From Trypanosoma brucei (lineage: Eukaryota), in contig CP000068.1 in the NCBI GenBank assembly GCA_000002445.1, forward strand, positions 1,312,001 through 1,376,000: a DNA stretch of 64,000 nt. Direction: 5' to 3'. A model generated the notes under the pieces. It made no database searches. It was not told where the DNA came from and saw nothing but the letters and a program-made list of their open reading frames with translations. How positions within the stretch are numbered: position 1 is the stretch's first letter; each line of letters opens with the position of its first letter. The position numbers and the translations under genes were made by a program. This document shows positions 20,681-64,000 of this stretch, piece by piece.

Positions 20681-20720
20681 CACACACACATATATATATA
20701 TATATGTGTGTGTGTATATT
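20681..20720. repeat. (CA)n(TA)n(TG)n compound microsatellite in the strand-switch region
   Basis: cacacacacatatatatatatatatgtgtgtgtgtatat. Confidence 0.9.
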
Positions 20721-29150: not shown

Positions 29151-29201
29151 GACGTTTAGTTTACCTGTTTCACTAGCAGTACCGGCCAAAGTTTCCAAAT
29201 T

Positions 29202-32200: not shown

Positions 32201-32933
32201 GCGCCTCGACCCCGAAGTGTACCGGTCTCTCTGGAAAGGTCTACGCGTACGTATCGGGATACACACCGGACTGTGCGAAATCCGACAAGATGAAGTGACG
32301 AAGGGCTACGACTACTACGGGAAGGTGACAGACATGGCCGCGCGGACGGAGAGCGTTGCGAACGGTGGCCAGGTAGTACTGACGCAAGCAACGTACTTTG
32401 CACTGAGCACAGCAGAGCGTGAACAGTTCGATGTGGTCTCCCTTGGCCGCATACCACTTGCTGGTGCGCCCCAACCTATGGAAGTATACCAGTTGAACGC
32501 GGTGCCCGGCCGTACCTTCGCTGCTCTTCGCCTTGACCGCGAGTTTGGCGACGACTTTGAAGATAGAATGAGTACCTCCACTGGAGACTCGAGTTCTCTC
32601 CGTAGCGGGATGAATGGAACAACGCAGATGATTGCAAGTTGCCTGCAGGCTGTGCTAGGCACTTTCACTGCAGCACAGCGACAGAAACTGCTGGTGCCTT
32701 TGTGCGAACGGTGGCGTGTCACGCTTCCCAGGACCGCACAGCTAACATGGGACGAGGGCTTTTGTGAAGATGTGATTCGTCGGATTTCAGTCAAGGTCGG
32801 TCGTGTCGTTGACCTCTGTGCAAACAGCGGTGGTGAGCGTACCGTCAGTACGCTGAGAAGTGCGTCTGTGATTATAATGTCGAACCGGCTTCGGGAATTT
32901 GAGGCAGAGGCAACCCAGAGCCCTGAAGCTTAG
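29202..32933 (+). CDS. GRESAG4: Receptor-type adenylate cyclase (GRESAG4 family), copy 1
   Basis: The 1243-aa ORF has a probable signal peptide (MSSLSLLLVFLVVVMPPVEA; the true start is likely at about 29307). It has a large extracellular domain and a single TM (LAGVIVGVLFILLLLVALLLVLLCL). The C-terminal class III cyclase catalytic domain carries LIFTDVESST, KTVGDSFMIA, GLRVRIGIHTG and YYGKVTDMAARTESVANGGQVV. Confidence 0.9.
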   Translation: MISIHQSILFGRDVSRVRMENSPVPCINQFRCRLTMSSLSLLLVFLVVVMPPVEALDNITVKVYSLLYHPFVGRRLIDSMNAGFNASMAARQWTVAPGINVEVIHPASYRIPGPRFLQRAINDNKDEFFVVVGPMGDGQLAASRSFLQKENLVAFAPSTGASSVRGWSPNIYFLRVSPTVELIALMRFAVTHLRLLRIGFMYLQGLTFGDSEYEVAIKLMSHLGRELCGVFTVASSHGKGAADSDFDAVWDKFVVTRPQGVIMFAPPAKDVVRFVVKMLNDSRTQDAYFLASSVLELTIASWSGNIEAANTALDLGQIVLSRTNPLATDTQYQAIRRFQDDARSYLSANPGVTLFSGADDFEHHYVDGKLMVYGWIVGEVLSQALRSRAWIKDRETFKKSLYSQRRYVVDELVFGDFGGECEGTAGKRGAVCNCNQGGNVVYINVARRDNVLEVIHDGQVVVDSSLCYHDEVRLHSPVNGLLVFMQDDPVAQNAAEEIYDGAIPLTGDGRLGRTDRFFLHMLTSETAEASSELESELGTRAVTAVFGVADDAMLSLQTTAFIDPISLLPGLPHRGRKVIYLSPTLEQQLFALVKYFVGSGSTVVHAVVCRGDVVSIERLLYLMLMTFGGHMGTVVGPDSSTDLEGSMPETGDVLVIGLSKDDVAVVASHLDRNPDVRVAVLFFDVALLYIEFVKAFKSSSSGGRLLFATSLPHWAEANSTSATVQKFHAAVPDSPRWTPLSLLGFATGRFIQTLLFHMDKVTPDSIINAIYTLSVVNSDDMRYGPFVEERCPSTKDAPEGGDHFCGKNYGARRLSVWSMDRALNASVAPLTSGATPSLVYIDPYSKVLSGGRLAGVIVGVLFILLLLVALLLVLLCLRRSARDNDSAPKEPADPVTLIFTDVESSTAQWAAHPELMPDAVAAHHRLIRSLITHYRCYEVKTVGDSFMIACKSAFAASSLAQGLQQRFLSADWGTSAFDESYREFEQQRADDDNEYKPPSARLDPEVYRSLWKGLRVRIGIHTGLCEIRQDEVTKGYDYYGKVTDMAARTESVANGGQVVLTQATYFALSTAEREQFDVVSLGRIPLAGAPQPMEVYQLNAVPGRTFAALRLDREFGDDFEDRMSTSTGDSSSLRSGMNGTTQMIASCLQAVLGTFTAAQRQKLLVPLCERWRVTLPRTAQLTWDEGFCEDVIRRISVKVGRVVDLCANSGGERTVSTLRSASVIIMSNRLREFEAEATQSPEA

Positions 32934-38700: not shown

Positions 38701-39468
38701 GCAGATGACGACAATGAATACAAACCGCCGTCCGCGCGCCTCGACCCCGAAGTGTACCGGTCTCTCTGGAAAGGTCTACGCGTACGTATCGGGATACACA
38801 CCGGACTGTGCGAAATCCGACAAGATGAAGTGACGAAGGGCTACGACTACTACGGGAAGGTGACAGACATGGCCGCGCGGACGGAGAGCGTTGCGAACGG
38901 TGGCCAGGTAGTACTGACGCAAGCAACGTACTTTGCACTGAGCACAGCAGAGCGTGAACAGTTCGATGTGGTCTCCCTTGGCCGCATACCACTTGCTGGT
39001 GCGCCCCAACCTATGGAAGTATACCAGTTGAACGCGGTGCCCGGCCGTACCTTCGCTGCTCTTCGCCTTGACCGCGAGTTTGGCGACGACTTTGAAGATA
39101 GAATGAGTACCTCCACTGGAGACTCGAGTTCTCTCCGTAGCGGGATGAATGGAACAACGCAGATGATTGCAAGTTGCCTGCAGGCTGTGCTAGGCACTTT
39201 CACTGCAGCACAGCGACAGAAACTGCTGGTGCCTTTGTGCGAACGGTGGCGTGTCACGCTTCCCAGGACCGCACAGCTAACATGGGACGAGGGCTTTTGT
39301 GAAGATGTGATTCGTCGGATTTCAGTCAAGGTCGGTCGTGTCGTTGACCTCTGTGCAAACAGCGGTGGTGAGCGTACCGTCAGTACGCTGAGAAGTGCGT
39401 CTGTGATTATAATGTCGAACCGGCTTCGGGAATTTGAGGCAGAGGCAACCCAGAGCCCTGAAGCTTAG
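35737..39468 (+). CDS. GRESAG4: Receptor-type adenylate cyclase (GRESAG4 family), copy 2
   Basis: This copy is over 99% identical to copy 1 at the protein level. The substitutions cluster in the ectodomain (SGNIEAAN to SSDIEAVN, TLFSG to TIFSG, YVVDE to YAVDE, GKRGA to GERGA, ARRDN to AGRDN, GRTDR to GQTDR). The catalytic domain is identical. Confidence 0.9.
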   Translation: MISIHQSILFGRDVSRVRMENSPVPCINQFRCRLTMSSLSLLLVFLVVVMPPVEALDNITVKVYSLLYHPFVGRRLIDSMNAGFNASMAARQWTVAPGINVEVIHPASYRIPGPRFLQRAINDNKDEFFVVVGPMGDGQLAASRSFLQKENLVAFAPSTGASSVRGWSPNIYFLRVSPTVELIALMRFAVTHLRLLRIGFMYLQGLTFGDSEYEVAIKLMSHLGRELCGVFTVASSHGKGAADSDFDAVWDKFVVTRPQGVIMFAPPAKDVVRFVVKMLNDSRTQDAYFLASSVLELTIASWSSDIEAVNTALDLGQIVLSRTNPLATDTQYQAIRRFQDDARSYLSANPGVTIFSGADDFEHHYVDGKLMVYGWIVGEVLSQALRSRAWIKDRETFKKSLYSQRRYAVDELVFGDFGGECEGTAGERGAVCNCNQGGNVVYINVAGRDNVLEVIHDGQVVVDSSLCYHDEVRLHSPVNGLLVFMQDDPVAQNAAEEIYDGAIPLTGDGRLGQTDRFFLHMLTSETAEASSELESELGTRAVTAVFGVADDAMLSLQTTAFIDPISLLPGLPHRGRKVIYLSPTLEQQLFALVKYFVGSGSTVVHAVVCRGDVVSIERLLYLMLMTFGGHMGTVVGPDSSTDLEGSMPETGDVLVIGLSKDDVAVVASHLDRNPDVRVAVLFFDVALLYIEFVKAFKSSSSGGRLLFATSLPHWAEANSTSATVQKFHAAVPDSPRWTPLSLLGFATGRFIQTLLFHMDKVTPDSIINAIYTLSVVNSDDMRYGPFVEERCPSTKDAPEGGDHFCGKNYGARRLSVWSMDRALNASVAPLTSGATPSLVYIDPYSKVLSGGRLAGVIVGVLFILLLLVALLLVLLCLRRSARDNDSAPKEPADPVTLIFTDVESSTAQWAAHPELMPDAVAAHHRLIRSLITHYRCYEVKTVGDSFMIACKSAFAASSLAQGLQQRFLSADWGTSAFDESYREFEQQRADDDNEYKPPSARLDPEVYRSLWKGLRVRIGIHTGLCEIRQDEVTKGYDYYGKVTDMAARTESVANGGQVVLTQATYFALSTAEREQFDVVSLGRIPLAGAPQPMEVYQLNAVPGRTFAALRLDREFGDDFEDRMSTSTGDSSSLRSGMNGTTQMIASCLQAVLGTFTAAQRQKLLVPLCERWRVTLPRTAQLTWDEGFCEDVIRRISVKVGRVVDLCANSGGERTVSTLRSASVIIMSNRLREFEAEATQSPEA

Positions 39469-41733: not shown

Positions 41734-43293
41734 TTGCAAACAATGGAAACCGCCGTGCCTGTGCGTTATTTCCTTGGGACTCTCATTGAGGCCCCTGCGC
41801 GTGACACCTTAATTTTCGCTCCCCGCTCTCTTGTCTGCGTTGGTGCTGACGGCTGTATTACCGCTGTCCTCCAACCCAATGACATAAAAAATGAAAGCGG
41901 TGTGAGCGGCGGCGGTGGAAGTGGTTGTGGAGGGAAAAGCGACAATGAAACATACGAGCAAACGCTTAAGGAAGCCCGGAGGTCCGGAGCACTCACAGTG
42001 CTGAAAGACCACCAATATCTTCTTCCAGGTCTTATTGATCTCCATGTGCATGCACCGCAGTGGCCCCAGCTTGGAAAGGCGCTTGATCGGCCGCTCGAAA
42101 TATGGCTGCATGAGTATACTTTTCCACTCGAGGCGAAGTACGCCGACCTCGACTTTGCAGCCACATCATACAACTCCCTTGTTTCAACATTATTGGCACA
42201 CGGAACTACGACGGCTGTGTACTTCGCTACAATCCACGTGGATGCAAGTCTTTTGCTGGCACGCGTATGCCTCGAGAAAGGTCAGCGCGCCGTCGTTGGC
42301 CGCGTTGCAATGGATTTGGCATCGCAGTGCCCAGCTTATTACCGGGATGCAAGCCCCCAGGAATCTATTGAACGCTCCGAAATTTTTATTCAGGCTGTCC
42401 GCAAGCTTCCCGGCAATGACAATAGCAGTCCTCTTGTGCTCCCTGCTGTAGTCCCGAGATTTATTCCAACAAGCAGCGATGAGGCGCTTCAGGGTCTTGG
42501 TCGTCTGGTCGCCAAGTACGGCTGCCACGTGCAGTCACACGTGTCGGAGAGCGACTGGGAGCATCACCACGTGTTGGAGCGCTGTGGTAAACCAGACGCC
42601 TTCGCTCTGGATGATGCCGGCCTGCTGACGCGGCGCACGGTCCTCGCTCACGGAAATTTCCTCTCAGATGCGGATATGAAACTTTTGTGTTCTCGTGGTT
42701 CCGCGGTGGCGCACTGTCCGCTTTCGAACTTTTATTTTTCAGGTGCCGTTTTCCCGCTGCGTCGTGCTTTGGACTTCGGGCTGCGCGTCGGTCTCGGGAC
42801 GGATATCTCCGGGGGACCTTCACCTGCAATTTGGGATGCCGCCCGTGATGCCTTAATGGCCGCTCGTGCACTTGAGAGTGGCGTCGACCCAACAACTTCA
42901 AAGGAGGAACGTGGTGGCCGGCGTCATGCCAATCCGGAGCAAAGCAAAGCGGAAGACTCAAACGGAAAAAAGGGGGAAAACCCGCGTGTTGGCGGTTCAG
43001 CTGCAGAGTCACGAGATTCAACTTCATGCCGCATCAATTCTGTGGAGGCCTTTTGGTTGGCGACAACACGTGGAGGTGAGGCTTTGGATCTTAAAGTTGG
43101 TCGGCTCGCCGCTGGATTTCACTTTGATGCAGTTGTTGTGGATGTTTCCGTTCCCACTGGCGGTGTGCACATCTTTCAAGGTCTTGACGGACCCCGTGAC
43201 ATCTTTGACAAAATTGTCTACGGTGCGTCCGCAGCAAACGTTGTTCAGACATATGTGGCCGGCCGCTTGGTCCACGGGAGGGTAGAACTTTAG
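41734..43293 (+). CDS. Guanine deaminase-like metal-dependent amidohydrolase
   Basis: The 519-aa ORF has the amidohydrolase HxH metal motif in PGLIDLHVHAPQWPQ, resembling guanine deaminase PGxIDTHIHxPQ. It has the downstream HVSES (HxxE) motif and a C-terminal D (GLGTDISGG) motif. Two low-complexity insertions are present: GVSGGGGSGCGGKSDNE, and a charged SKEERGGRRHANPEQSKAEDSNGKKGENPRVGGS loop. Confidence 0.8.
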   Translation: MQTMETAVPVRYFLGTLIEAPARDTLIFAPRSLVCVGADGCITAVLQPNDIKNESGVSGGGGSGCGGKSDNETYEQTLKEARRSGALTVLKDHQYLLPGLIDLHVHAPQWPQLGKALDRPLEIWLHEYTFPLEAKYADLDFAATSYNSLVSTLLAHGTTTAVYFATIHVDASLLLARVCLEKGQRAVVGRVAMDLASQCPAYYRDASPQESIERSEIFIQAVRKLPGNDNSSPLVLPAVVPRFIPTSSDEALQGLGRLVAKYGCHVQSHVSESDWEHHHVLERCGKPDAFALDDAGLLTRRTVLAHGNFLSDADMKLLCSRGSAVAHCPLSNFYFSGAVFPLRRALDFGLRVGLGTDISGGPSPAIWDAARDALMAARALESGVDPTTSKEERGGRRHANPEQSKAEDSNGKKGENPRVGGSAAESRDSTSCRINSVEAFWLATTRGGEALDLKVGRLAAGFHFDAVVVDVSVPTGGVHIFQGLDGPRDIFDKIVYGASAANVVQTYVAGRLVHGRVEL

Positions 43294-44565: not shown

Positions 44566-47028
44566 GTGGCAATGTGTTTTATATTTGGTGTTGAGATGAG
44601 TAACCTAGCAAAGAGGCCAATGAGCCTGAGGAAGCTACCACAGCTTCTTTTGCTCATCATGATTGGTATTGCATTTGTTGCGGTTGAGTGCATTGGAGCT
44701 CCTGTTAAACTTCCCCGACGCGTGGATACTGTTGCCGGTCAATTTGGCGTGGAAGGCGAAACTAATGGATATCCAAATACTACGAGACTTACAGAACCCT
44801 ACGCATTGTGTCGAGGGAGGACAAACGATGAAATTTTAGTGGGGAGTTCCAACAGCTTCCGCAACTACTCTCGCAAAACAAAAGAAACTGGTACATATTT
44901 GAGATACAATGTAGGTGATAGCGTGATTTCAGGGTCCTCTACTATAAACAAACCTCGTAGTTGTGTCCGTCGCGGCTCTGGTAATCACACAATCATTTAC
45001 TTTGTTGACGACCAGAAAGATATTAAATATATTGTAGGGGATGATGTTTCGTCTTTCAGTGTGCCCACAAGCGGTTCCTTGAATGCTGTAGCTGTACATG
45101 AAGGCACTTTATACGTAACAGACCAGAATAACAAATCGGTGTGGAAGTGTGGTTTAGGCGGCGCCGGCAAGCCTCAAAGTTGTGAAGAGAAAAAATTTAC
45201 GAGCGTGACACTCGACGCAAAACCGGAAGGAATTGCCGTGACTTCTAAAGGAATTTTTGTTACCGCACGCGATTCATCTAACAAGGGAGCTTTGTTGTGG
45301 CTGGATATGAGCGGTGGTAACAGAAAGGGAAATGTAAGTGGTGGTTTTGTTGATGTATTCAGCACTGAGTCAGGTGTGTTATATGCAGCCACGGAGAAGG
45401 AATTGTACACCGTCACTGCCACCGACACTTCACTCAGTGTAACATCATTTGCAGGGAAGAATACGAGCCAGTGTTACTTCCCTACCAATGGAGAAGATAT
45501 TGTATTATGTGACAACTCACGACTGCTCGTCATTGAAGAATATGAGATGTATGTGACTTCGAAGGCCAAGCACACTATGCGTGCCTTAACTCTCCCTCCA
45601 GTCAACTTAACCGCCATCTTCCGTGGGCGACCAGCACCTGTAGGTTACCCCAACACAACAATTATGGAGCAGTTTGTGGCAAGTCTTACGGAGGATGTAA
45701 ATAAAGCACTCGGTACCAATGATAGCTATGTGGACCCCGATTCTGTGAGGGTGGATCCCGATACATGGGAAACGAATTTCACTGTTTTTGTTCAGCAAAC
45801 GCGTTTTGACAATACGACGGAGGAGAAATTACGGAGTCTGACATACACACAAACGGATAAGACTGTTGACGAGTATTACGGTCTTACTGATGAGTATGTG
45901 TACATTGATACCGTCCTTGTGCCATTCTGTGACGATGCAAGCCTTGTCACTATCCAGCGTGCGTTGGCGCGTGAAGCTGGACGTGCACTGAATTTCTCTT
46001 TGGTATACGCTGACAAGCCCATAACCTTTGGTAGTGACGTTGCGGAGAATGTCACTGCAGTAAAGCTTTTGATGCCTCATTCATTCAAGAACGCAACGAC
46101 ACCTAAGCAGCTATCGGCTGCGAACCTCACTGACTTTGCGCACAACTTGGTCAAGGACTTGCGTGCTTCAGACACTCGTGTCGATATCACATTCCCCGAT
46201 CCCCCGTTTAATTTTTCAGCTGTTGTCCCTGAACGTGAGCAGGAAGTACGTTGGTTTGTCCATGGGAAAGTAATGAAGCAGCTTGAGATTTGTGAGAGAC
46301 TTGGTAGCCAGGGCGATGCGGCCGTTATTGCAGCTGCAGCTGATGCGACTGCTCGAGGTAAGGCCAATGTCACATTGAATACCAGCGGAGTCAAGGCAAA
46401 TGATACAGGGGTTGGTCCCAACACCACAAATACCGCTGGTGGGGCCAATACTACTGCTAATGTTGCCGCTAATGGCACTGCCAATGTTATTGTGAATCCC
46501 TCCACCAATGCTACTCCAACTGGAACCACCAATGCTAGTGTCACTAATACTACCGAGAGAGCTGTTCCTGTTGTTGCCCCTACTCAACCTTCTAATGGAT
46601 ATGCGGAGTGTCGATCCGCTATAACCAACCGCACGGAAACACAGAACATGGAACCACCTTACGACAGGAAACACCGATATGAGGTATTCCTACCTAAAAA
46701 GTATGACTTCAATGTGTCATGGTGCGTGGACATCATTGACTGGCGTGACTTGGACGAGATGTTGAATAACCGCACAGATGAGGTGGTGGAAAAGTCCCTT
46801 TCATGGTGCGGCCACGGTTGCATTATTGCGTTTGCGGTGGTAGGTTCCCTGATTGCTGCGTGTCTAGTGGTGCTGGCTGTGGTGTTGACATCGAAGAGGA
46901 GGCGTCTTGCTGCTGTGGTTGCTCCACCGCGCCCAAAGTTTGTATCAACAGTGGAAGATGATGATGAAGATCGTGTATCAAACATCGGTGTGCCACTGAC
47001 CGATGGGAAGGGAACCACCGCACCGTAA
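44566..47028 (+). CDS. Type I membrane glycoprotein, copy 1; possible beta-propeller/NHL-like ectodomain with an Asn/Thr-rich stalk
   Basis: The 820-aa ORF has a probable signal peptide (MSLRKLPQLLLLIMIGIAFVAVECIGA) and many N-x-S/T sites. NHL-like strands include PEGIAVTSKGIFVTARD and GTLYVTDQNNKSVWKC. The membrane-proximal stalk is N/T-rich (NTTNTAGGANTTANVAANGTANVIVNPSTNATPTGTTNASVTNTT). There is a single TM (IIAFAVVGSLIAACLVVLAVVL) and a short acidic cytoplasmic tail. The family is not recognised. Confidence 0.7.
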   Translation: MAMCFIFGVEMSNLAKRPMSLRKLPQLLLLIMIGIAFVAVECIGAPVKLPRRVDTVAGQFGVEGETNGYPNTTRLTEPYALCRGRTNDEILVGSSNSFRNYSRKTKETGTYLRYNVGDSVISGSSTINKPRSCVRRGSGNHTIIYFVDDQKDIKYIVGDDVSSFSVPTSGSLNAVAVHEGTLYVTDQNNKSVWKCGLGGAGKPQSCEEKKFTSVTLDAKPEGIAVTSKGIFVTARDSSNKGALLWLDMSGGNRKGNVSGGFVDVFSTESGVLYAATEKELYTVTATDTSLSVTSFAGKNTSQCYFPTNGEDIVLCDNSRLLVIEEYEMYVTSKAKHTMRALTLPPVNLTAIFRGRPAPVGYPNTTIMEQFVASLTEDVNKALGTNDSYVDPDSVRVDPDTWETNFTVFVQQTRFDNTTEEKLRSLTYTQTDKTVDEYYGLTDEYVYIDTVLVPFCDDASLVTIQRALAREAGRALNFSLVYADKPITFGSDVAENVTAVKLLMPHSFKNATTPKQLSAANLTDFAHNLVKDLRASDTRVDITFPDPPFNFSAVVPEREQEVRWFVHGKVMKQLEICERLGSQGDAAVIAAAADATARGKANVTLNTSGVKANDTGVGPNTTNTAGGANTTANVAANGTANVIVNPSTNATPTGTTNASVTNTTERAVPVVAPTQPSNGYAECRSAITNRTETQNMEPPYDRKHRYEVFLPKKYDFNVSWCVDIIDWRDLDEMLNNRTDEVVEKSLSWCGHGCIIAFAVVGSLIAACLVVLAVVLTSKRRRLAAVVAPPRPKFVSTVEDDDEDRVSNIGVPLTDGKGTTAP

Positions 47029-51638: not shown

Positions 51639-54095
51639 ATGTGTTTTATATTTGGTGTTGAGATGAGTAACCTAGCAAAGAGGCCAATGAGCCTGAGGAA
51701 GCTACCACAGCTTCTTTTGCTCATCATGATTGGTATTGCATTTGTTGCGGTTGAGTGCATCGGAGCTCCTGTTAAACTTCCCCGACGCGTGGATACTGTT
51801 GCCGGTCAATTTGGCTTTGATGGAACCACTGATGGGAGTTCGAATGTTTCAATGCTTTCGTCACCCTACGCATTGTGTCGAGGGAGGACAAACGATGAAA
51901 TTTTAGTGGGGAGTTCCAACAGCTTCCGCAACTACTCTCGCAAAACAAAAGAAACTGGTACGTTCCTCAGGGGTGGCCCAACTGGAGGACTCGTCTCCGC
52001 AGACGCTAAAATTAGCAAGCCACGTAGTTGTGTCCGTCGCGGCTCTGGTAATCACACAATCATTTACTTTGTTGACGATCAAAATGGTCTGAAATATATA
52101 AATGACAACGAAATTCAGCACGTTACTGTAGGGAATGGTCTTTCGTTAACTTCCGTCGCTATTTATGAGAAAGATTTATACGTAACAGACCAGAATAACA
52201 AATCGGTGTGGAGGTGTAATGTCGGCGGTGCCGGCAAGCCTCAAAATTGTGAAGAGAAAAAATTCACGGGCCTGACGTTTACTGCAAAACCGGAAGGAAT
52301 TGCCGTGACTTCTAAAGGAATTTTTGTTGCCGCACGCGATTCATCTAACAAGGGAGCTTTGTTGTGGCTGGATATGAATGGTGGTGGCTCAAAGGGAAAT
52401 GTAAGTGGTGGTTTTGTTGATGTATTCAGCACTGAGTCAGGTATGTTATATGCAGCCACGGAGAAGGAATTGTACACCGTCACTGCCACCGGCTCTGCAT
52501 TCAGCGTAACATCATTTGCAGGGAAGAATACGAGCTCATGTTACTCTCATGCCAATGGAGAAGATATTGTATTATGTGACAACTCGCGACTGCTCGTTAT
52601 TGAAGAATATGAGATGTACGTGACTTCGAAGGAGAAGCATACTATGCGTGCCTTAACTCTCCCTCCAGTCAACTTAACCGCCATCTTCCGTGGGCGACCA
52701 GCACCTGTAGGTTACCCCAACACAACAATTATGGAGCAGTTTGTGGCAAGTCTTACGGAGGATGTAAATAAAGCACTCGGTACCAATGATAGCTATGTGG
52801 ACCCCGATTCTGTGAGGGTGGATCCCGATACATGGGAAACGAATTTCACTGTTTTTGTTCAGCAAACGCGTTTTGACAATACGACGGAGGAGAAATTACG
52901 GAGTCTGACATACACACAAACGGATAAGACTGTTGACGAGTATTACGGTCTTACTGATGAGTATGTGTACATTGATACCGTCCTTGTGCCATTCTGTGAC
53001 GATGCAAGCCTTGTCACCATCCAGCGTGCGTTGGCGCGTGAAGCTGGACGTGCACTGAATTTCTCTTTGATATACGCTGACAAGCCCATAACCTTTGGTA
53101 GTGACGTTGCGGAGAATGTCACTGCAGTAAAGCTTTTGATGCCTCATTCATTCAAGAACGCAACGACACCTAAGCAGCTATCGGCTGCGAACCTCACTGA
53201 CTTTGCGCACAACTTGGTCAAGGACTTGCGTGCTTCAGACACTCGTGTCGATATCACATTCCCCGATCCCCCGTTTAATTTTTCAGCTGTTGTCCCTGAA
53301 CGTGAGCAGGAAGTACGTTGGTTTGTCCATGGGAAAGTAATGAAGCAGCTTGAGATTTGTGAGAGACTTGGTAGCCAGGGCGATGCGGCCGTTATTGCAG
53401 CTGCAGCTGCTGCGACTGCTCGAGGTAAGGCCAATGTCACATTGAATACCAGCGGAGTCAAGGCAAATGATACAGGGGTTGGTCCCAACACCACAAATAC
53501 CGCTGGTGGGGCCAATACTACTGCTAATGTTGTCGCTAATGGCACTGCCAATGTTATTGTGAATCCCTCCACCAATGCTACTCCAACTGGAACCACCAAT
53601 GCTAGTGTCACTAATACTACCGAGAGAGCTGTTCCTGTTGTTGCCCCTACTCAGCCTTCTAATGGATATGCGGAGTGTCGATCCGCTATAACCAACCGCA
53701 CGGAAACACAGAACATGGAACCACCTTACGACAGGAAACACCGATATGAGGTATTCCTACCTAAAAAGTATGACTTCAATGTGTCATGGTGCGTGGACAT
53801 CATTGACTGGCGTGACTTGGACGAGATGTTGAATAACCGCACAGATGAGGTGGTGGAAAAGTCCCTTTCATGGTGCGGCCACGGTTGCATTATTGCGTTT
53901 GCGGTGGTAGGTTCCCTGATTGCTGCGTGTCTAGTGGTGCTGGCTGTGGTGTTGACATCGAAGAGGAGGCGTCTTGCTGCTGTGGTTGCTCCACCGCGCC
54001 CAAAGTTTGTATCAACAGTGGAAGATGATGAAGAAGATCGTGTATCAAACATCGGTGTGCCACTGACCGATGGGAAGGGAACCACCGCACCGTAA
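51639..54095 (+). CDS. Type I membrane glycoprotein, copy 2; paralogue of 44566-47028
   Basis: The 818-aa ORF is nearly identical to copy 1 from about residue 330 to the C-terminus, with differences only at AADATARG to AAAATARG, DDDEDR to DDEEDR and a few others. Residues about 60-300 are mosaically divergent. Confidence 0.7.
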   Translation: MCFIFGVEMSNLAKRPMSLRKLPQLLLLIMIGIAFVAVECIGAPVKLPRRVDTVAGQFGFDGTTDGSSNVSMLSSPYALCRGRTNDEILVGSSNSFRNYSRKTKETGTFLRGGPTGGLVSADAKISKPRSCVRRGSGNHTIIYFVDDQNGLKYINDNEIQHVTVGNGLSLTSVAIYEKDLYVTDQNNKSVWRCNVGGAGKPQNCEEKKFTGLTFTAKPEGIAVTSKGIFVAARDSSNKGALLWLDMNGGGSKGNVSGGFVDVFSTESGMLYAATEKELYTVTATGSAFSVTSFAGKNTSSCYSHANGEDIVLCDNSRLLVIEEYEMYVTSKEKHTMRALTLPPVNLTAIFRGRPAPVGYPNTTIMEQFVASLTEDVNKALGTNDSYVDPDSVRVDPDTWETNFTVFVQQTRFDNTTEEKLRSLTYTQTDKTVDEYYGLTDEYVYIDTVLVPFCDDASLVTIQRALAREAGRALNFSLIYADKPITFGSDVAENVTAVKLLMPHSFKNATTPKQLSAANLTDFAHNLVKDLRASDTRVDITFPDPPFNFSAVVPEREQEVRWFVHGKVMKQLEICERLGSQGDAAVIAAAAAATARGKANVTLNTSGVKANDTGVGPNTTNTAGGANTTANVVANGTANVIVNPSTNATPTGTTNASVTNTTERAVPVVAPTQPSNGYAECRSAITNRTETQNMEPPYDRKHRYEVFLPKKYDFNVSWCVDIIDWRDLDEMLNNRTDEVVEKSLSWCGHGCIIAFAVVGSLIAACLVVLAVVLTSKRRRLAAVVAPPRPKFVSTVEDDEEDRVSNIGVPLTDGKGTTAP

Positions 54096-56156
54096 GTCAC
54101 GTGCGTTGTAGCTGTATGTGTAACATCACATTCCTTGTGTTTGTGTGGTGTGTTTGCATGCATAGAATATAATCGGACTAGAAAACACTTTATTTGAGCG
54201 TACCCCTGTCCTTGAGTGACACTCTCAGGGGATGACGCTGCTTAACATTGTGGAGAGGAAGAGACACAACAGAGAGTAGAGTAATATGTTTGTGTGCAAG
54301 AGATAATAGAAAGGAGGGGGGGGGGTGGTGTGACTCTGTGTCTTGCTTATGTTATTACCTTCCCTCACTGTTTCCCCCCCCCCCACATACACACGTACCG
54401 GAATCCGTAATATACACGGTATTTGTAGGGGCTGTCCTTTTATTTTCTCTTCCATTGTTTGCTTTGCATGTCCCTCACAGTTGTGGTAGAATGAGTGCTC
54501 GCACCTGGTGTGTGAGTGTGGGAAGGTTTCATGCACGAGTGTGTATCACTAAAAATGCGGTCAGTAGATAACAAAGTGTGTGTTAATCACCTTGTGTGAG
54601 TATTTAAATCATATTTGACTCCACCGGGTCTGTGCTTGCTTCTTTCTCTTTGTTTTGATTAACTGGGACGCGTTTGACCCTTTTGCGGTGTGCGTTTATA
54701 TCTGCTGTGCCCGGCATATGGCACACCTTTCTTTCACTACGCTATGTGTTCTGAAGCCCCATTACTCTCTTTCCGCGAGTACCCCAATTGCATATACTCC
54801 TCTTCACTGCTTCCCTCTTTTTTTTGTTTAATTTATCTTTTCTTAATTACGTAACTTCTGGTAGTGTCAGTAATATTCAGACAGTTGAGAGAGGGGGGGG
54901 GGGAGGAGTTTACCAACCAAGTAAGCCAGCGGTCAGCCCCTTCTGAGACCCGTGTGGAGTTTCCTGATGTTTCCATGCACGCATAAGAGGCAGGCATTTT
55001 TTATTCGTAGTTTGTTTTATAATTTCAGTTGTGCCTTGGAGTTTCGTATGAGAATTTGTGCCCAGAGGGGCTGCTGATGAATGTTTTTTTTTTTAATTTG
55101 TTTTTGTCCTTTGCTCTGCTTAAAGGAACGGGGGTATTGATGACATTTTTGCTTTTTTTTCCAAAAAAAAGGCGTAGCGGGTGTAGCGAGGACGATTCGT
55201 TGTGAAATATATTGAGAGGTTGAACTGTTGTTGTTGGTATATTTTTTTTTGTGTGGTGCGTATGCAAATGCATGACTAACATTCTCATTGACGGCGGAGT
55301 CATAACGTTATCATTGACGGAAAAAGACAGTTTAGATTTTATTATATGATATTTGTGGCCGGGAATGCTTCCAAGCCACAACAGTACAGTTCTATCTTGA
55401 CCCCCACGGTGCAATAGTGGTGTACGGCGTTATTTAAATTTGGAATTTCAACCTTATCAAATTGTGTTTTTCTTGCAACTTAATAGTTTTGGTTGCGGAA
55501 ATACGAGCAAAATACTTGTCGGGAATAAATTTGATATCCACGAAAGAATTGTCATTAAAATTGAGCGGTTCCCTTTATGGAAGCGAGTGCAATGACCGGT
55601 GTCGGAGTGGCCATAGCAGTTGAGACTTTAATGTGAATGATTATGAGTCAACAATCTGTTCCACTAGACAGTTAATGGGCAGGCAGTAAAAGCGGACACA
55701 AAAATACAGTCAATTTGTAAAAACTCCACAGGGAGGACGGCAACGGCAGAGGGTTTGAGAGGAGCCAGAGAAATGATAACTTTTGCTGCCAATGAGATAA
55801 ACTCACCATAACCTCGTGTCAATGGTGCGTTAACAAAGGGATTCGCCCCAATATCTAATCAGTGAGTTAACTTAGGTATAATATGTATGTGCAAACGCAG
55901 CCTTTGATTTTTTTTTTATCGATGTCGTCGTGTTTCTCTTCCCCTCGAAAAAAAAAGAAGGAAAGCCGACGATACCCTTCGGGAGTTAAGAGGATGGTTT
56001 GGTGTCCCTTCTGTGCGTCCAACGAGGTGCGTGCACTTTCCACCGCTAAGTTCTGCGCCTCGCTCACAACCATAAAACAAGAGTCTTTTTTTTCTTTTTG
56101 AATAATGCGCATGCAAACGATCCCGCTTTTCCCCCCTTCCCGTTGGCATTTTCCCC

Positions 56157-56159
56157 CAT

Positions 56160-56195
<36 letters not shown>

Positions 56196-56196
56196 G
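56157..56196. repeat. (CA)n(TA)n microsatellite upstream of the 395-aa gene
   Basis: catacacacatacatatatatatatatatatatatatatgcat. Confidence 0.9.
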
Positions 56197-56246
56197 CATA
56201 GAGCAGCCGAAAAACAGCATTTAAGCCAAGGTGCCAACTTGAGCGA

Positions 56247-57434
56247 ATGCGGCATCTTGGCTTTGCTGGCGATAAGAAACGGTCGATGAGCATAGTGGGC
56301 TTGTTTCTTTTTTTATTGGCTTGCGTGTCAGTAGTTGCAACACATGCAAATGGAAGTGTCCTCAGGAGCACGGGATCTGAGGGAAAGGTGTGGTTAGATG
56401 CACCAACTAGTCGGCGAGTCCCATTTAGGAATCCGAGAGTCATTTTTGTTGTTGTTCAGACCCGACCCTCTCCAGGTTGGTGCAGAATGTTAATGACTGC
56501 TGTTGTTACAAATGTGTCGGTAATTTCTATTGGTATGGGTGGGAATTACAGCCACACCATCCGGGCAAACTGGTTATTGAATTTCTTGGATGATGAGGTC
56601 CTCCATGATGATGATGTGTTAGTTATGTTTGATGGTGCGGATACACTTTTCACTGATGGAATCCATCGGAAACGGAAGCTTGACCACTTTATAAAAATGT
56701 CTCCCCCACTGCCTACATTCTTTAACCAAACGGCTATATACAGAGGTGATGCTTGGCCGCCCATGCTTCACACAGCAGAACCGGATTGTTATGCTCCCCA
56801 GCTGAACATCACATACAACCCGAAAAATGAGTCGCATTGGGATCGCTGTGCGAGATTTTATGCCATGGGTCTGTCGGAAGCCAAATCAATTGGTGTTGAG
56901 CGGCTGCTGGGGTTGCCACCTCCCGTGCGTGGACACCTCAACAGTGGAGGAATTGTGGGCCGGGTATGGGCATATAAAGAGGCATTTAGCGTTTTTTTGC
57001 AACTCAGGGAAGCTTCCACTGAATGGTGGTGTGATCAGTCTATTTGGGCTGCCTTATTTATTTGGAGCGTTGGTAGTGCAACGGGTGTGGATTCCAAATA
57101 CATAATACGGCGTGGAATCATTAGTCTTGACTATGACAAGAGATACTTTTACTACCCAACAGATGAATACGATACAAGTTCGGTACTTTTACATTTTACA
57201 GGGGCCCCCGACCGATGGACGTATTACTTTCCAGAATACTTTGTCCGCCTTCCGTGGTATAGGAACCTTATGGGAAACAGTACCTACAGACATAATGTCG
57301 TGGCGGCGTTACGAAATACTTCCATCATAACCTACAACTACACTCGGGAGAGGATTGTAAGGAAATATGAAGATATTTGTGATGTGGAACAGATGACTGA
57401 CCCCGAATTTTTGGTGTACCCACTGAATAAGTAA
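56247..57434 (+). CDS. Secreted or ER-lumenal protein, possibly glycosyltransferase-like
   Basis: The 395-aa ORF has a signal peptide (MSIVGLFLFLLACVSVVATHANG; the likely true start is near 56286). It has a DxD-like motif in LVMFDGADTLFTDG. It is Trp/Tyr-rich. The assignment is tentative. Confidence 0.5.
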   Translation: MRHLGFAGDKKRSMSIVGLFLFLLACVSVVATHANGSVLRSTGSEGKVWLDAPTSRRVPFRNPRVIFVVVQTRPSPGWCRMLMTAVVTNVSVISIGMGGNYSHTIRANWLLNFLDDEVLHDDDVLVMFDGADTLFTDGIHRKRKLDHFIKMSPPLPTFFNQTAIYRGDAWPPMLHTAEPDCYAPQLNITYNPKNESHWDRCARFYAMGLSEAKSIGVERLLGLPPPVRGHLNSGGIVGRVWAYKEAFSVFLQLREASTEWWCDQSIWAALFIWSVGSATGVDSKYIIRRGIISLDYDKRYFYYPTDEYDTSSVLLHFTGAPDRWTYYFPEYFVRLPWYRNLMGNSTYRHNVVAALRNTSIITYNYTRERIVRKYEDICDVEQMTDPEFLVYPLNK

Positions 57435-60400
57435 CATACGGTGGGGTTTTCTACACGCAGCGAGTAGTGTGAGTGTGTGGGGAGGGGTTAGTTGTTGTGA
57501 AGACTATGTGTGCAGCTGCCTCACCGACACATGCCCTTATTCCAACCGTTACTATGCGAATAATCACGAATTATCCCCTTTAATGGAGTAATTTTTTTTT
57601 CCCTCCGTTTCTTATCATTTGAATAACATAATGAACCAACAGGTCCATGAGGGAAATAATATGAGGAAATTATTAGGGTGGAGAATGGAGGCCCTATCTG
57701 TAGTGAATAAAAGTGTGTCGACAACCCCTTGTGGTGTTGTGCATTTTCGCCACTAATGGAATCACTTTGTAGATGCTCGAGGTACTGATTGTACATGTAT
57801 ATTTGCTGTTGTGCGGAGCTTTTGCCTCGGAAATTAAGAAAACAGAAATGCACTATCATCCCCGTCTCATGTGATAGATGCGGAGAATGCAGTTAAAAAA
57901 GCGTGTGTTTTATTCGCATTTAATAGGTGACACAAGAGAGAGCGGCACGAGGTAAGGAATGAGGTATCGTGAAATTGGTGTGGGGATTTTCCTGTTTGGG
58001 GCCACAATTAATGAAGGGATAAATGAAGGAAAAGGTACTGATAAATATTGACGAAAACGGTGTTTGCATCATCTTCGCTATTACCGAAAGGAAATGACTC
58101 CATGGGTGCATGGGCCAATTTTGAATATTATAATGATCTGTTGCCGCAACTTTCCCTCCATTGAACCAAACTCCACCTTTTCTTTTGCGTTCTCCCATTT
58201 TTTTGGGGGGGCCCACGAAAGGAACGGTCAAACCTTACTGAATGATTTGTTATGTTTCTTTCGCTCATATATGAAGTCAGTATAGCGGAGGGAGCTTTTT
58301 CTTTTTTTCGAAAAAAAAAGGTAAGCTTCACAGATATGCCAACGGCAACTCCACAGACCATTCTGGATGTAGAATGGACAAAGGCCTTGACATAAACAAA
58401 AGCTTTTGTATAAAGGAGGGAACAAACCCCATTTTCAATTGGAAATGGTTCGTCGCTCAGAAACTTCACGTCGCATGCAGACGGTATGTTGAAATTGGAA
58501 AATGGGGAGTTTCAAGTATTCTTTGAAAATAAGGAAGTGAACTTCATTTACCTACGGAATTCATTGGTGTCTTTCAATATGCCCCAAAGCGCTGTATTTT
58601 TTACGGTCTTTTGAAGAAGCCCGAGTGATGTTTTGAAATAAATGAACGGTGCTTGAGGAAAATAAATCAGTTCTATTCCAGAAGTATGAAATGATACGGC
58701 ACAAATGGGTGACAGGCGCTGGCGCATTCAAACTCAGTTGATAGGAATTAATGTTGAGAATTGTAGAATAAGGCAGGGGAATTTTTCAATTGAGAGAAGA
58801 GTTGGATCAGATGCATTCGCATATAGGTAGATTAGAAGAGATAAACGAATCATCAATACCTGAGGTGAATCACTGGAAAACGATTGCCCATTTACAAACG
58901 TTTTCCAATGATTCAGTTGGCTTCACAGAAGGAAGTATGTAAATGGGAGGAAGGATGTACAACCCGATGCTTTTTACCAACCGTATTTGAGAGAGAAAAA
59001 ATCCATTCTCCTGGTTAGTAGAGTTTGACGCTATAGCTGTGGAAAGTTAAATTATTATGGTTCTACATTTTATGCCAAGGAAAAGAAAATACTTCAGCAG
59101 CCGAAAGGTGGGATTTGGCCACGGAAACAATGAAACTTGAGTGCCGAGAGAGTATTGGAATCCATACCCATGAATATAAAAATCCGAAACCCTTAAGTGC
59201 GTGGGTTACGGAATAGAAAGAGGGCAATTGGATGTGGTTTTAGATCCCATGAAAACAATAAATAAAGAATCGTACTCTAAATCTCTCCAGCCAACAAAGA
59301 CACTGGTAAACGACACGATCATAATAAGAAAACTTCTGAGCCACGATCCGGTTACTGTGGCGTGGGCTTCAGGGACAAATCACATTGTAAAATGCATTTG
59401 GACGCAGCCAACATGAGAACATGTGGCTCCGATACCGAGAAGGTCCTGCGATTTCTCGAGAAAGCACAAGTTAGAGTTAGAATAGGTTAGGCCCTGTCTT
59501 CTCTTTATTGTGAGTATGCAATTGGCAAAAAACAACACAACGCAGCATACAGGAACTTTATTGTTAATGGTGGCACTCGGAAGAGAGTGGTTTGTAGCAA
59601 CCGGAATAAGAAAAGATAGTATGAAGTTGTAAGGTGGCTGTGGCGACTCAAATATCGACGAACCAGCGGGCACGAATAACTGATCGCTTCTGCAGGTGCC
59701 ACTCTACAACATCGCACTGTTCTACGGAGGAGCGAAAACGGGAACAACAACAACGAGACGCTTCTGGAAAATTTATCCATAAACAGGTCTCACTACAAAA
59801 GCGAATACAACTTATTATGGAGACAATAAAGGACGCATTCTGAATGGGATACTTCTACAAGGATATTCACGATTTTAGGGTTTGGTGGCAACCACATGGA
59901 GGAGAGGGTAAGAACCTGAGGTATTTTCTGTTATCGTGTTACTGCGGAAGGGATTCCGACGGCATATAATGGGTATGGGAAATGTTGCAAGCGCATGACT
60001 ACCACATCCCTCAGTGAGCTACCAGCATTAGTGAGCGAAAAGCAAAAATCCGCTTCAGGCATGCCACTTTGCGCTTGTACCTCACACTGTCATATGAAAA
60101 AATTGAGATGTAATACTATGAGGCGAAAAGAAAAGAGCAAGAGTCACAGCAAGGGTGCAAGGTAGAGCATGTCGTATTGTGTCTGGAACGCTCAGCTAAC
60201 TCATGGTATTTACAATAACAAATCACTTGGTCACATGAAGTCCGGAACACAACTGGTGGTGGCACCTAAACTACTGCCTGAGCGCTCTCCAAAGTCCTAC
60301 ACATATAATAATATCAGTTGACCGTGCACAAATTAGAAGAGAGATGCATATGATACTGCTAAATGCCACTATGGACCACATGAGGAGGTGAACACAGAGA

Positions 60401-62080
60401 GACAGAGAAGAGAAATCAGTGATATCTTTGCAGAATCATCAATTTGTACGATGTGCGGCATTGAGCCTAAAAGTGCTTGTGGAATTACTTCAGATTATAC
60501 CGTGGTGACACACGCTAGTCAAATTGAGGTACGATTCCCCTCAGATCGATGCTACTGAAAATCATGGAGGAGACGTAAATAAGTGTAGAATTTGTACATT
60601 TACTTTGTGCGAAAAAGGGTAGGCCCCGTAATACATAGTGGACCAAAACACTGCTCTGAATCGTTGCTTGTGCTCACAGCGCAACAAAATCAAATGGGTA
60701 TGTTGGTTCAATGCGAAGCACAGTAACGTGGAACTAACGGAAAAATATAGGTTGCAATAACGGCACCACTACATGCAGTTGCGAAGTGAAATAGAGGATC
60801 GGTGGTTCCAGGTCGAGTCCAGAAGAATTCCCAGCGATGCAACAGGAGCGGAGACAGGGCGGTACGGTGCCCCCGAGACCCATTAACAACTTTAAAGGAA
60901 TGTGTGATACCGGTGAAAAGACAAGTGATGGAATACGAAGCTGCGGAACAGCGACATGCTCAACTCTCCCAGGAAATGAGAGGAATACAGTGGCGTGTTC
61001 AATACAGCGTATACGCTGTAGCTTCTTAACAGAATTGTTGGGAGAGTTAACTTCATGCGTAGGGGCCCGATGTTGCGGGAAAAAACCTACCAAGAGCAGC
61101 ATCGGCACCGGGCATCGCCAAACAGTTGCAAGATACGAAGGGATATCGCTTGGGCAAACGCTGTTGGAAAAGAGTGGAGGATTTGGTAACCGCAGTGGTG
61201 ACAGAAATGTGCATTGACAGACGAGATATCGGTTCGCTTCGAGAAGATGGAGGTCATGGACCCTTTCATAAAATGTCAAAACTCGACATTATCGTTTTGG
61301 AGCTTCACACTTATGTGTTGAGCCTATGTTTAGTGTAGTCAGGATGTGACAGAAAGTGTTATGCGGCAGCAAACTTTTCCATGGGTAAAGGTGCCCCTAA
61401 TGGAATCCACGGGATCGAGGAAACTACTCACCCTGGTGAGTGGGAAGAGAATCCGTATAATAAGCTTATGTGCCAGGTGTTGAAGAATCTCGCTGTTGCT
61501 GTTGGCTTGGAATGAGTGACGTTAAAAGATTGTTTTCAGAAGATATTCTATTTCTTGTGTACGATCAAGAAAGCCATCTCTGGCACTGGTGGTTCCCTCT
61601 CGAGAGAAGAACATAAGCGCTTGAAGAGATGCAAGTGTATTACGTAGTGTCGAATTTCCGAATTTGGTTCTGATGAAGAAGCGTAGGGGCTCTCTTAACC
61701 AAAATCCACTGGAGCTGCAATCGCCCTGAGGTATGGGACTTCTCAGAAAACCTAGCAATGCTGTCAAAAAAATGTACGAATGGATCAGGGACTATCTGGG
61801 GCATCCCTTACTGTCAAGGATTATGCTCGGTGTGTGTGCATCAACGTGTTGATGGCGAACCTCCCTCAGTTTATGATACTGAAATTAAAAGGAAATGGGA
61901 TACATGTTCGGCAAGAGTTACAGTTCCTTTTAATTTGACGCACCGAGAAGAAAAGAGATTTACAAGCTAGAAGTGTTTCTTCGTGGGTTGCGCATGCTGT
62001 TTAATTGAAAATAAAGTTGTAGGTGTATGACTTTTTTTGTTGCGTGTGATTTTTCTTGAAAGGTAATTGAAGGAAGTGCA

Positions 62081-63214
62081 ATGATAATGTGTAAAAAGTT
62101 ACTGGGATTAATTGTGGGGGTTGTTTCGATAATGATGATAACACCCGTGTCCAGCGTAGAGGAAGAAATAGTTAATGAGGGTGAATTTAAGACATTATGT
62201 GATTTTGTCAGCTTAACAGAACGAATAAACGAGTCGCTAGAGTTGATAGAAAAGTCAGGAGTAAGCGTGTCTTTTCTACAAAAAAAAGTTACAGATGTAT
62301 TGTTTGGAACGGGAATTGGGGATGTTAGTAAAATGAAATGGCAACCTCACAGGGATATGGATTGTGGCACTAACAGTGGAAACCGAGCTTTCTGGGCAGG
62401 AGAGGCCCTCGTGAAAGATATTCTTTGTTTGTGCGAAAGGACAGATGGCTTGCACTCGCCACCCGAGCATCTTTGTTATCGTGGAAACAGCAAACGACAT
62501 AACGCTGACAACTGGAAAACCCCTACGAACCGCAAAAATACATGGAATGAACTACAAAATAAGTGCAAAAAGGGAGGTATCGAAGGCGCACCAACAAGGA
62601 CTGAGCTTCAAGATATGAGAAAACAACTCGAGGCAGGTATAAAGAAACGTAACGATTCGCATCACGGTGAGTACTGCATTTACGGAGGGGACAAAACTAA
62701 GACGCTAAGAATCTGCGATGGCCACCGAACAGAAACCAACGGCATTTGCGTAATGTATCCAAGGGGAACTGATGGGGCCAATGCAAGTGGTATTGAATGG
62801 CTTAATAAGCTCGAAAGACTGGTGAAAGAAGTCGAGAAAATAACAAAGGATGAAGGTACAAGCAGGCACACAAAACCAAGTAGTGACGGAGAGCCGAGCA
62901 TGGACGCAAAACCAAACTCAAACTTAAAGCCAAGCACGGAGGGAGAACTCACCATCCGAGCGATCAGACGAACCACGAGAAAAGGGAAACCCAGATGCGC
63001 AAACAACTACCACCACAGAGACAGAGACAGGTTTAACCACGGCAAGACCACCAGAAGAACAAAAGAGTTCAACCAAAATTATTTTACAGTCTATATGGGT
63101 ATTTTTATTTTGGCTGTTTGTATAAATTGGTCCATCATTCAATTGTTTTTATTTTTAAACCTTAATAAGGAAAGTAAGACAAACGCGGGCGCAGAAGACC
63201 AGCGAACAGGATGA
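62081..63214 (+). CDS. VSG-fold-like (VSG/ISG/ESAG-like) surface protein with signal peptide and C-terminal TM
   Basis: The 377-aa ORF has an N-terminal signal peptide (MIMCKKLLGLIVGVVSIMMITPVSSV). It has the EF..LC motif (EGEFKTLCDFVSLTE) that is characteristic of the N-terminus of trypanosome VSG A-type and related folds. It has conserved Cys spacing. The C-terminal hydrophobic segment (YFTVYMGIFILAVCINWSIIQLFLFL) is followed by a 16-aa hydrophilic tail (NKESKTNAGAEDQRTG). That favours a TM anchor over a GPI signal. Confidence 0.55.
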   Translation: MIMCKKLLGLIVGVVSIMMITPVSSVEEEIVNEGEFKTLCDFVSLTERINESLELIEKSGVSVSFLQKKVTDVLFGTGIGDVSKMKWQPHRDMDCGTNSGNRAFWAGEALVKDILCLCERTDGLHSPPEHLCYRGNSKRHNADNWKTPTNRKNTWNELQNKCKKGGIEGAPTRTELQDMRKQLEAGIKKRNDSHHGEYCIYGGDKTKTLRICDGHRTETNGICVMYPRGTDGANASGIEWLNKLERLVKEVEKITKDEGTSRHTKPSSDGEPSMDAKPNSNLKPSTEGELTIRAIRRTTRKGKPRCANNYHHRDRDRFNHGKTTRRTKEFNQNYFTVYMGIFILAVCINWSIIQLFLFLNLNKESKTNAGAEDQRTG

Positions 63215-64000
63215 ATGGAACAAAAAGCTTATGTTTTTCACCCATTTGTGAGGTTTTCTAGTGAATAGTTTTGACACTGTGAAAAAGTATATAACCTGCC
63301 GGAACCTACGTGTAGCAATGCAAGTTGAGCAAAGCAAAAGTGAAGAGAAACGGGAGTAAAAAAAAAAAGGACTTATTCCTTTTACAGATAAAAAAATAAG
63401 TAAAGATATTGGCATTGTTATTATGGAATCTGGAAAGACAAATATAAAGGAACCGCCTTATGTACACAAACCTTAAGCCTTACGGGCGATTACAGTTAAC
63501 TCAGTTGAATTATGAGACCGAATGGGCGAGACCTAATTATGGAAACCTGGTTGGAGCGTTTAGGAAAGGGGGGGGGCAAAAAGAGAGTTATGTATGCAGA
63601 AAGCAATCAAAAATACGGTCAAATCCAATCAAGTTTGTGTGGCGACGAAGTCACCTACAAGTGGTGAAGGAAGCGCGAACAAAAGGGTTCACGAACTTCG
63701 ATCAAGTCTCTAAATAAAACACCAAAAGAACTAAATGTGTGGTTTTTCATTTAATGAGAGGAAAGTGAAGCCACCAAAAGACATATTGTCTGAGTTGACT
63801 TTATTTGTGTAACCCTAAAGTTTGAGGTACATGAATGTTGGGAATCGTACGATACAGCTGAGGGTCGATCAAAAGGGCTGTGGGTGAAGGAAACACCTGC
63901 ACGGTGGATTAAACATTAAGTTAAAAGGCGCTGAAGGCGGCAGAAGGGACCCTCATAGTCTTTGAAAGGCTTCTTCATGGGAGGAAACAATCAGAATGAA

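Follow-up and report, generated by a model that had tools for sequence, protein, structure and literature searches.

A VSG-related gene in the core of Trypanosoma brucei chromosome 5 with a one-base shift of frame ahead of its GPI-signal-type C-terminus

Gene content of the window

The window, by which we mean the whole stretch of 64,000 nucleotides analysed, carries near its right-hand end an open reading frame (ORF) of 377 amino acids, whose features and neighbours are collected in Table 1. Six neighbouring proteins match proteins of T. b. brucei TREU927 chromosome 5 exactly, which places the window on that chromosome; a 926-amino-acid hypothetical protein is among the window proteins identical to their TREU927 counterparts. 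The genes for the major vault protein (MVP) and the paraflagellar rod protein Par4 lie furthest to the left. The two GRESAG4 receptor adenylate cyclases that follow are encoded in tandem, have 1243 amino acids each and fall into a single 90%-identity cluster. Beyond them come an amidohydrolase gene, a tandem FLA3/ESP8 pair and an ESAG3-like gene. The second FLA3/ESP8 copy, of 818 amino acids, is identical to the TREU927 protein and bears the name ESP8 in T. equiperdum, ESP8 and FLA3 being the same protein (PMC4587319). The GTG listed as the start of the first copy, at 44566, is probably wrong, a homologous ATG being present at 44572. The original prediction, made from the sequence alone, had placed the gene in an array rich in surface proteins; this description is accurate, the GRESAG4 pair, the FLA3/ESP8 pair and the ESAG3-like gene all lying upstream of it.

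Table 1. Positions of the genes and sequence features in the window, from left to right
Feature	Position	Strand	Remarks
Major vault protein (MVP)	4711-7227	-	Identical to TREU927 protein
Paraflagellar rod Par4	11594-13333	-	Identical to TREU927 protein
Two GRESAG4 receptor adenylate cyclases	29202-32933, 35737-39468	+	Identical to TREU927 proteins
Amidohydrolase	41734-43293		Corresponds to the guanine deaminase preceding the FLA3 pair on BAC Tb05.5K5
FLA3/ESP8 tandem pair	44566-47028, 51639-54095	+	91% identical at the protein level
395-aa ESAG protein, ESAG3-like	56247-57434		Identical to TREU927 protein
Candidate trans-splice acceptor region	62031-62075	+	5' of the ATG; proposed from reading of the sequence
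377-aa ORF including stop	62081-63214	+	ATG start; VSG-related (VR) gene read through the frameshift
Signal-peptide-like hydrophobic leader MIMCKKLLGLIVGVVSIMMITPVSS	62081-62155	+	aa 1-25; Kyte-Doolittle maximum at aa 2-26
EFKTLC motif	62183-62200	+	aa 35-40; start of first long helix
Pfam VSG_B match	62276-62860	+	aa 66-260, aligned with positions 157-342 of the 352 in the profile; E 1.7e-30
Hydrophilic linker, still in family frame	62861-62944	+	~90% identical to P0004 and P0010
Extra single nucleotide (frameshift) in purine run GGAGGGAGAAC	62945	+	Placed by tblastn; exact base arbitrary within ~3 nt
ORF-frame linker ELTIRAIRRTTRKGKPRCANNYHHRDRDRFNHGKTTRRTKEFNQNY	62945-63082	+	Frameshift product; 14 K+R in 46 aa
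Family-frame (+1) tail NSPSERSDEPREKGNPDAQTTTTTETETGLTTARPPEEQKSSTKIILQSIWVFLFWLFV and TAA stop	62946-63125	+	C-terminus expected without the extra base
GPI-signal-like end, SS + TKIILQSIWVFLFWLFV	63066-63122	+	Family frame; presumed GPI attachment
ORF-frame hydrophobic segment FTVYMGIFILAVCINWSIIQLFLFLNL	63083-63163	+	aa 335-361, 27 aa; the 'TM helix' of the original prediction
ORF-frame hydrophilic tail NKESKTNAGAEDQRTG and stop	63164-63214	+	aa 362-377; sequence 3' of the family-frame stop

Some 9.5 kb at 19645-29201, which separate the genes of the minus strand from those of the plus strand, contain no ORF longer than 200 amino acids; here the GC skew reverses its sign close to 22 kb, and at 20-22 kb the AT skew reaches an unusually high value of 0.33. 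This interval is presumably a divergent strand-switch region, from which transcription starts. Scans of the window for tRNA genes and Rfam families found nothing. Tandem repeats with a period of about 70 bp are absent from 54000-64000, and the core motif of the 70-bp repeat is matched only once in the whole window, with two mismatches, a frequency at the level of chance. The absence of 70-bp repeats ahead of the gene, noted at the outset, is thus confirmed, and together with the lack of a match to the VSG C-terminal domain it upholds the view that the gene is not a canonical VSG cassette.

Relatives and fold of the ectodomain

As read, the ORF is uninterrupted, and the literal sequence observations from which the analysis set out are all borne out. 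Its start and splice-acceptor context is plausible: a pyrimidine-rich tract at 62031-62057 lies upstream of the ATG, and between the two there are AG dinucleotides at 62061-62062, 62071-62072 and 62074-62075. The 377-amino-acid ORF may well be transcribed and translated. The signal peptide that had been proposed is represented by a hydrophobic leader which aligns with the leaders of all homologues, with a presumed cleavage site, and the E-F-x-x-L-C motif by EFKTLC, which lies in a block conserved throughout the family (N32, E35, L39, C40 and F42 are invariant among 26 aligned sequences). Twelve cysteines are present in the product. The family alignment has 35 invariant columns, among them those of C40, C95, C116, C118, C132, C162, C212 and C223, of which all except C40 lie within the VSG_B region. 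The same region holds the N-glycosylation sequons N191 and N234.

VSG_B (PF13206) is the sole Pfam match of the product. A phmmer database search returned 25 proteins, every one of them from T. brucei or its subspecies, of 254-367 amino acids (mostly 340-345) and bearing names such as 'VSG-related' or 'VSG, atypical' or VSGnome numbers. A profile search found 28 relatives, again all VSG-related or atypical VSG proteins of T. brucei, and since only three of these were additional, the family is closed. The homologues (25 phmmer and 28 profile matches) are 42-89% identical to the ORF product. The TREU927 'b-VSG' P0055 shows 93% identity over 257 amino acids, whilst P0002 (B3GVN5), named 'VSG, atypical', is 89% identical in the N-terminal domain and would be the VR gene of the Lister 427 expression site BES11. 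The proposal of a VSG-type surface protein is thus sustained, by the VSG_B match, by class-B VSG profile matches and by database relatives which belong without exception to a surface family.

Judged by its sequence, the gene is a copy of the T. brucei VSG-related (VR) surface-protein family and so of a kind already known; the family was reportedly described by Marcello and Barry in 2007. VR genes are described as chromosome-internal and devoid of 70-bp repeats (PMC2771046) and as specific to T. brucei, with a structural resemblance to T. congolense VSGs (PMC3605285), and their count in TREU927 is given as 36 (PMC2854126). In bloodstream forms the VR proteins are translated and associate with the surface (PMC4587319). 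The present gene has the b-type VSG-derived N-terminal domain of the family, closest relatives in the VR/atypical group of about 340 amino acids, a similar length once its frame is restored, and a chromosome-internal position without 70-bp repeats upstream. In place of a canonical VSG C-terminal domain it has a short Thr/Pro/Glu-rich stalk, in the +1 frame. It departs from the family in being a mosaic of two VR subtypes and in a one-nucleotide insertion which puts the GPI-signal-type C-terminus out of frame. Since the hydrophobic end typical of the family can be read in the +1 frame alone, behind the extra base near 62945, the gene is best regarded as a frameshifted, pseudogene-like member. 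The 377-amino-acid product has no record in a collection of 15 billion proteins that includes nr and UniRef, so that the reference annotation probably has no coding sequence here and most probably treats the ORF as a pseudogene. A literature search on Tb927.5.4610 and Tb05.5K5.240-270 found no mention of them.

Comparison with known structures leads to the class-B VSGs. A search of the PDB with the family profile matched the N-terminal domains of mVSG1954 (8b3w, E 6.4e-7) and VSG615 (8ok8). In the alignment with 8b3w, VR positions 92-253 correspond to chain residues 176-336 and the N-terminal motif to residues 8-29; from the N-terminal helix motif to the CG(Q)D block there are about 43 residues in the VR profile as against about 147 in mVSG1954. 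The VR domain is thus some 100 residues shorter than a normal VSG-B domain, and the description of the protein as small and compact is correct, the VSG_B profile being aligned over little more than its distal half. The full-length AlphaFold model is poor (pLDDT 41). That of the ectodomain is moderate (pLDDT 59.9, pTM 0.66, one of five models), mainly helical with a small sheet. In a Foldseek search of the PDB with the ectodomain model, class-B VSGs (VSG3, VSG11, VSG615 and mVSG1954) take all of the top 21 places, albeit with weak scores (E 0.02-1, TM 0.4-0.48); as the model is only moderate, these fold matches are supportive. No ISG, HpHbR or ESAG6/7 fold is among the PDB matches of this model. 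Of the VSG, ISG or ESAG-like three-helix-bundle ectodomain first envisaged, the VSG part therefore stands, in the form of a likely class-B VSG fold and a mainly helical ectodomain model; no link to ISG65/75 or HpHbR came to light.

The class-B VSGs (VSG3/MITat1.3, 6elc; VSG11, 8ok6; VSG615, 8ok8; mVSG1954, 8b3w) are homologous to the VR proteins by profile search, give the best, though weak, fold matches and share the aligned Cys-rich region CLC...C...C...C. They differ in their greater length, in their C-terminal domain and in their role in antigenic variation, which the VR proteins do not have. A further family for comparison is Fam1 (Tb927.6.1310), a family peculiar to T. brucei whose proteins resemble VSGs and belong to the flagellar pocket (PMC3605285). 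Its members are of about 347 amino acids, b-type VSG-derived, encoded in the chromosome core, and have a signal peptide, a predicted GPI anchor and no VSG C-terminal domain (PMC3605285). Fam1 is, however, treated as a separate family in the phylome paper (PMC3605285), and none of the matches found here is named Fam1.

A change of frame near nucleotide 62945

Up to nucleotide 62944 the ORF is in the frame of the family, whilst its last 89 codons are in another. In tblastn, P0004 aligns through its residues 1-284 with 62087-62944 and through residues 285-343 with 62946-63122 in the next frame. P0010, P0016, P0002 and P0008 are likewise divided between frames at 62944/62946, and from these splits the presence of one extra base at about 62945 follows. 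Three-frame translation agrees: the +1 frame encodes ...ENSPSERSDEPREKGNPDAQTTTTTETETGLTTARPPEEQKSSTKIILQSIWVFLFWLFV and then a TAA at 63123-63125, which is the family C-terminus. The +1 tail (62946-63122), reading ...SDEPREKGNPDAQTTTTTETETGLTTARPPEEQKSSTKIILQSIWVFLFWLFV*, is identical to P0004 at 52 of 58 positions (E 7e-26). The +1 frame is matched by 21 of the 25 homologue tails, whose local scores are 82-274 there as against 21-32 in the ORF frame; only two, those of P0001 and the truncated P0007, are in the ORF frame, P0023 is in the third frame and P0024 ends earlier. Deletion of one base restores a protein of 347 amino acids, where the family has 340-345.

The two frames differ in character. 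In the family frame the linker has 9 D+E and 17 S/T/P in 40 amino acids, and beside it the strongly basic ORF-frame reading is compositionally abnormal. Intact members pass from a hydrophilic linker through a Thr/Pro/Glu-rich stalk to ...EEQKSS followed by TKIILQSIWVFLFWLFV; the 17-18 residues after Ser-Ser are hydrophobic up to the stop and are conserved across the family. Judged by eye, the pattern KSS-TKIILQS-IWVFLFWLFV resembles an omega site, a spacer and a hydrophobic stretch, and it is similar to those VSG GPI signals of T. brucei that have 17 residues. Because of this resemblance of the short hydrophobic C-terminus to a VSG-type GPI signal, intact VR proteins are most likely GPI-anchored surface glycoproteins of bloodstream forms, in line with the literature.

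The strongest hydrophobic windows of the ORF product are the N-terminal leader and residues 335-361. The latter had been described as a 26-residue transmembrane helix preceding a Lys-containing tail. Both elements can be read from the ORF, the helix at 27 residues, yet they are by-products of the one-base frameshift: the helix arises when the T-rich codons of the GPI signal, together with the first bases past the family stop codon, are translated in the wrong frame, and the hydrophilic tail is read from sequence beyond that stop, its source in a frameshift being an outcome that the original prediction had itself named as contrary to its proposal. Segments of this C-terminus that are specific to the ORF frame include ...GKPRCANNYHHR... 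and NKESKTNAGAEDQR. A transmembrane anchor in place of a GPI signal is accordingly not sustained, the family's GPI-signal-like end being intact in the +1 frame from nucleotide 62946, and the suggested ISG-like turnover through cytoplasmic lysines loses its basis. The ORF frame was compared in four other VR loci, L001 (DAL972 chromosome 5), L002 (T. equiperdum), L003 (DAL972) and L006; it is interrupted by stops in the first three and open only in L006. Dual coding or programmed frameshifting, considered as a candidate, was rejected on account of these stops.

The EATRO1125 entry P0001 also goes over into this alternative frame, at a different place, after SDEP, and ends inside the hydrophobic stretch (...CINWSTIRD), so that neither the transmembrane segment nor the Lys tail is shared with it. 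The shift at another position indicates that indels in the low-complexity C-terminal region have recurred within the VR family. C-termini in another frame, or hydrophobic ends that vary through indels (...IFFCGFISHSIINIHFLKC versus ...IFLFLLLYKPFHH), occur in P0001, P0007, P0023 and P0009/P0018/P0020, entries which come from Lister 427, EATRO1125 and T. equiperdum. From these alignments the region seems to be frameshift-prone across the family.

Status of the gene and diversification of VR loci

With high confidence we regard the feature as a chromosome-internal VR gene of TREU927 chromosome 5 which has been frameshifted by one base. Lying downstream of the GRESAG4 pair, the guanine deaminase, the FLA3 pair and the ESAG3-like gene, it encodes a signal peptide, a shortened b-type VSG N-terminal domain with eight conserved cysteines and three N-glycosylation sequons, and a hydrophilic linker. 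At about 62945 the extra nucleotide shifts the frame, so that translation would run through a nonsense linker of basic character and a hydrophobic stretch that is out of frame, and on for 29 codons past the normal TAA. The resulting C-terminus would mimic that of a type-I transmembrane protein with a Lys-containing tail. A single base is thus enough to feign a novel architecture, a VSG fold on a transmembrane anchor: the T-rich GPI-signal codons specify a hydrophobic stretch in the shifted frame too, and what lies past the stop is read as a false cytoplasmic tail. The gene most likely represents a pseudogene allele or a disabled-anchor copy, with no new design of anchoring.

This reading takes the extra base to be real. 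Were it instead an error of sequencing or assembly, the parasite's DNA would lack it and the true gene would be an intact VR gene of 347 amino acids with a GPI-signal-type C-terminus. It is consistent with an error that removal of one base yields a full-length member of the family, free of any further defect, that the rest of the gene is intact, including all the invariant cysteines, and that the site is a purine run. Against this, single-base errors should be rare in the finished TREU927 chromosome 5 assembly, and the window matches that reference. The lack of a protein record suggests that the annotators accepted the frameshift. Furthermore, frameshifted tails recur in P0001, P0007 and P0023, VR entries of other strains, which argues that genuine frameshifts are common in this family. 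An error is therefore unlikely, and in our estimate the extra base at about 62945 is in all probability real. Were the ORF a genuine type-I transmembrane protein of VSG fold, with cytoplasmic lysines mediating ISG-like, ubiquitin-dependent turnover, one might point to its 377 open codons, to the 27-residue hydrophobic segment and 16-residue hydrophilic tail with two lysines at its end, and to the use of the same alternative frame by P0001. That account is very improbable. The tail is the conserved GPI-signal region out of frame followed by post-stop sequence, the linker before it (14 K+R in 46 amino acids) is unnatural, and neither the transmembrane segment nor the Lys tail is kept in P0001, whilst three of the four other VR loci have stops in this frame. 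Nor is there any similarity to ISGs in sequence or fold, by Pfam scan or Foldseek.

The Pfam VSG_B match, and names in the databases like 'variant surface glycoprotein 1125.1766', could also be taken to denote a canonical silent VSG, or a VSG pseudogene of the antigenic-variation archive, situated in the chromosome core. We consider this extremely unlikely, since 70-bp repeats are absent upstream, there is no Pfam match to the VSG C-terminal domain, the VSG_B profile is aligned in its distal half only, where a canonical VSG would have a full-length N-terminal domain of about 350 amino acids, and the close relatives all belong to the VR/atypical group of about 340 amino acids. The gene lies, moreover, among core housekeeping, ESAG-related and FLA3 genes and not in a subtelomere, minichromosome or expression site. 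If the frameshift is real and the 377-amino-acid product is made, a naturally transmembrane-anchored VR isoform might exist beside GPI-type copies such as P0004, an idea to which we give very little credence. If true, it would represent an accidental exchange of a GPI for a transmembrane anchor, altering the sorting or turnover of a VSG-fold protein.

Two known systems help to place the preferred reading, that of a frameshifted VR gene. The ORF as read resembles ISG65 and ISG75 only superficially, in its signal peptide, ectodomain, single hydrophobic segment and short Lys-containing tail. No ISG family was found in the Pfam scan and no ISG among the PDB profile or Foldseek matches; the transmembrane segment and tail, which here are a frameshift artefact, are not retained in P0001 or the other VR loci as those of an ISG would be. 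The ESAG6 and ESAG7 subunits of the transferrin receptor offer a precedent for a change at the C-terminus of a VSG-derived gene that toggles GPI anchoring, ESAG7 being without the GPI signal of ESAG6 (PMC3605285). Those proteins are, however, a-type VSG-derived and the form without the GPI signal is conserved and functional, whereas the altered C-terminus described here is not conserved.

The gene is also a mosaic. Over residues 1-240, windows of 30 amino acids show 87-100% identity with P0001 and P0002, and this part resembles P0055 as well; residues 241-288, like the tail, share about 90% identity with P0004 and P0010. This difference in kinship indicates segmental gene conversion among VR paralogues. 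P0004 (AAX70776), whose protein is intact, comes from BAC Tb05.5K5, on which accession order gives MVP, two GRESAG4 genes, guanine deaminase (.200), FLA3 (.210/.220), two further genes and the 'VSG' P0004. As this reproduces the order of genes in the window, P0004 is probably this gene's allele from the second haplotype of TREU927. Linker and tail are near-identical between P0004 and the ORF product, and across residues 91-240 the two share only 33-63% identity. If P0004 is allelic, two alleles of one strain differ greatly in their ectodomain.

The locus is syntenic in T. b. gambiense DAL972. The flanking DNA of L001 is 97-100% identical to that of the window; between 9600-11500 of L001 and 61700-63600 of the window, which take in the VR gene and its immediate flanks, identity is 62-83%, and the VR protein of L001 (P0008) is 51% identical to the ORF product. 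Taken for the gene as such, DNA identity is 65-75%, compared with 97-99% for the flanks. Such a sharply bounded island of divergence, at about 61.7-63.6 kb, suggests replacement by gene conversion. Both the mosaicism and the divergence of TREU927 from T. b. gambiense are in keeping with gene conversion and diversification that are still going on at VR loci of the core chromosomes. The significance of the gene is small outside its correct annotation, these two features being of modest value for the study of VR gene evolution.

By their gene identifiers, VR genes of TREU927, and likewise of BES11 in Lister 427, repeatedly adjoin ESAG9 genes (PMC2771046, PMC2567434), the neighbouring identifiers being Tb927.5.4620, Tb927.5.110/120/130, Tb09.160.5350-5440 and Tb09.v1.0290-0330; in the expression site BES11, one VR gene sits with an ESAG9 (PMC2567434). 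The ESAG9 gene Tb927.5.4620 should lie just past the end of the window, beyond 64000, and the systematic identifier of the present gene should fall between those of FLA3 (Tb927.5.4570/4580) and this ESAG9. The pairing suggests a mobile VR-ESAG9 module.
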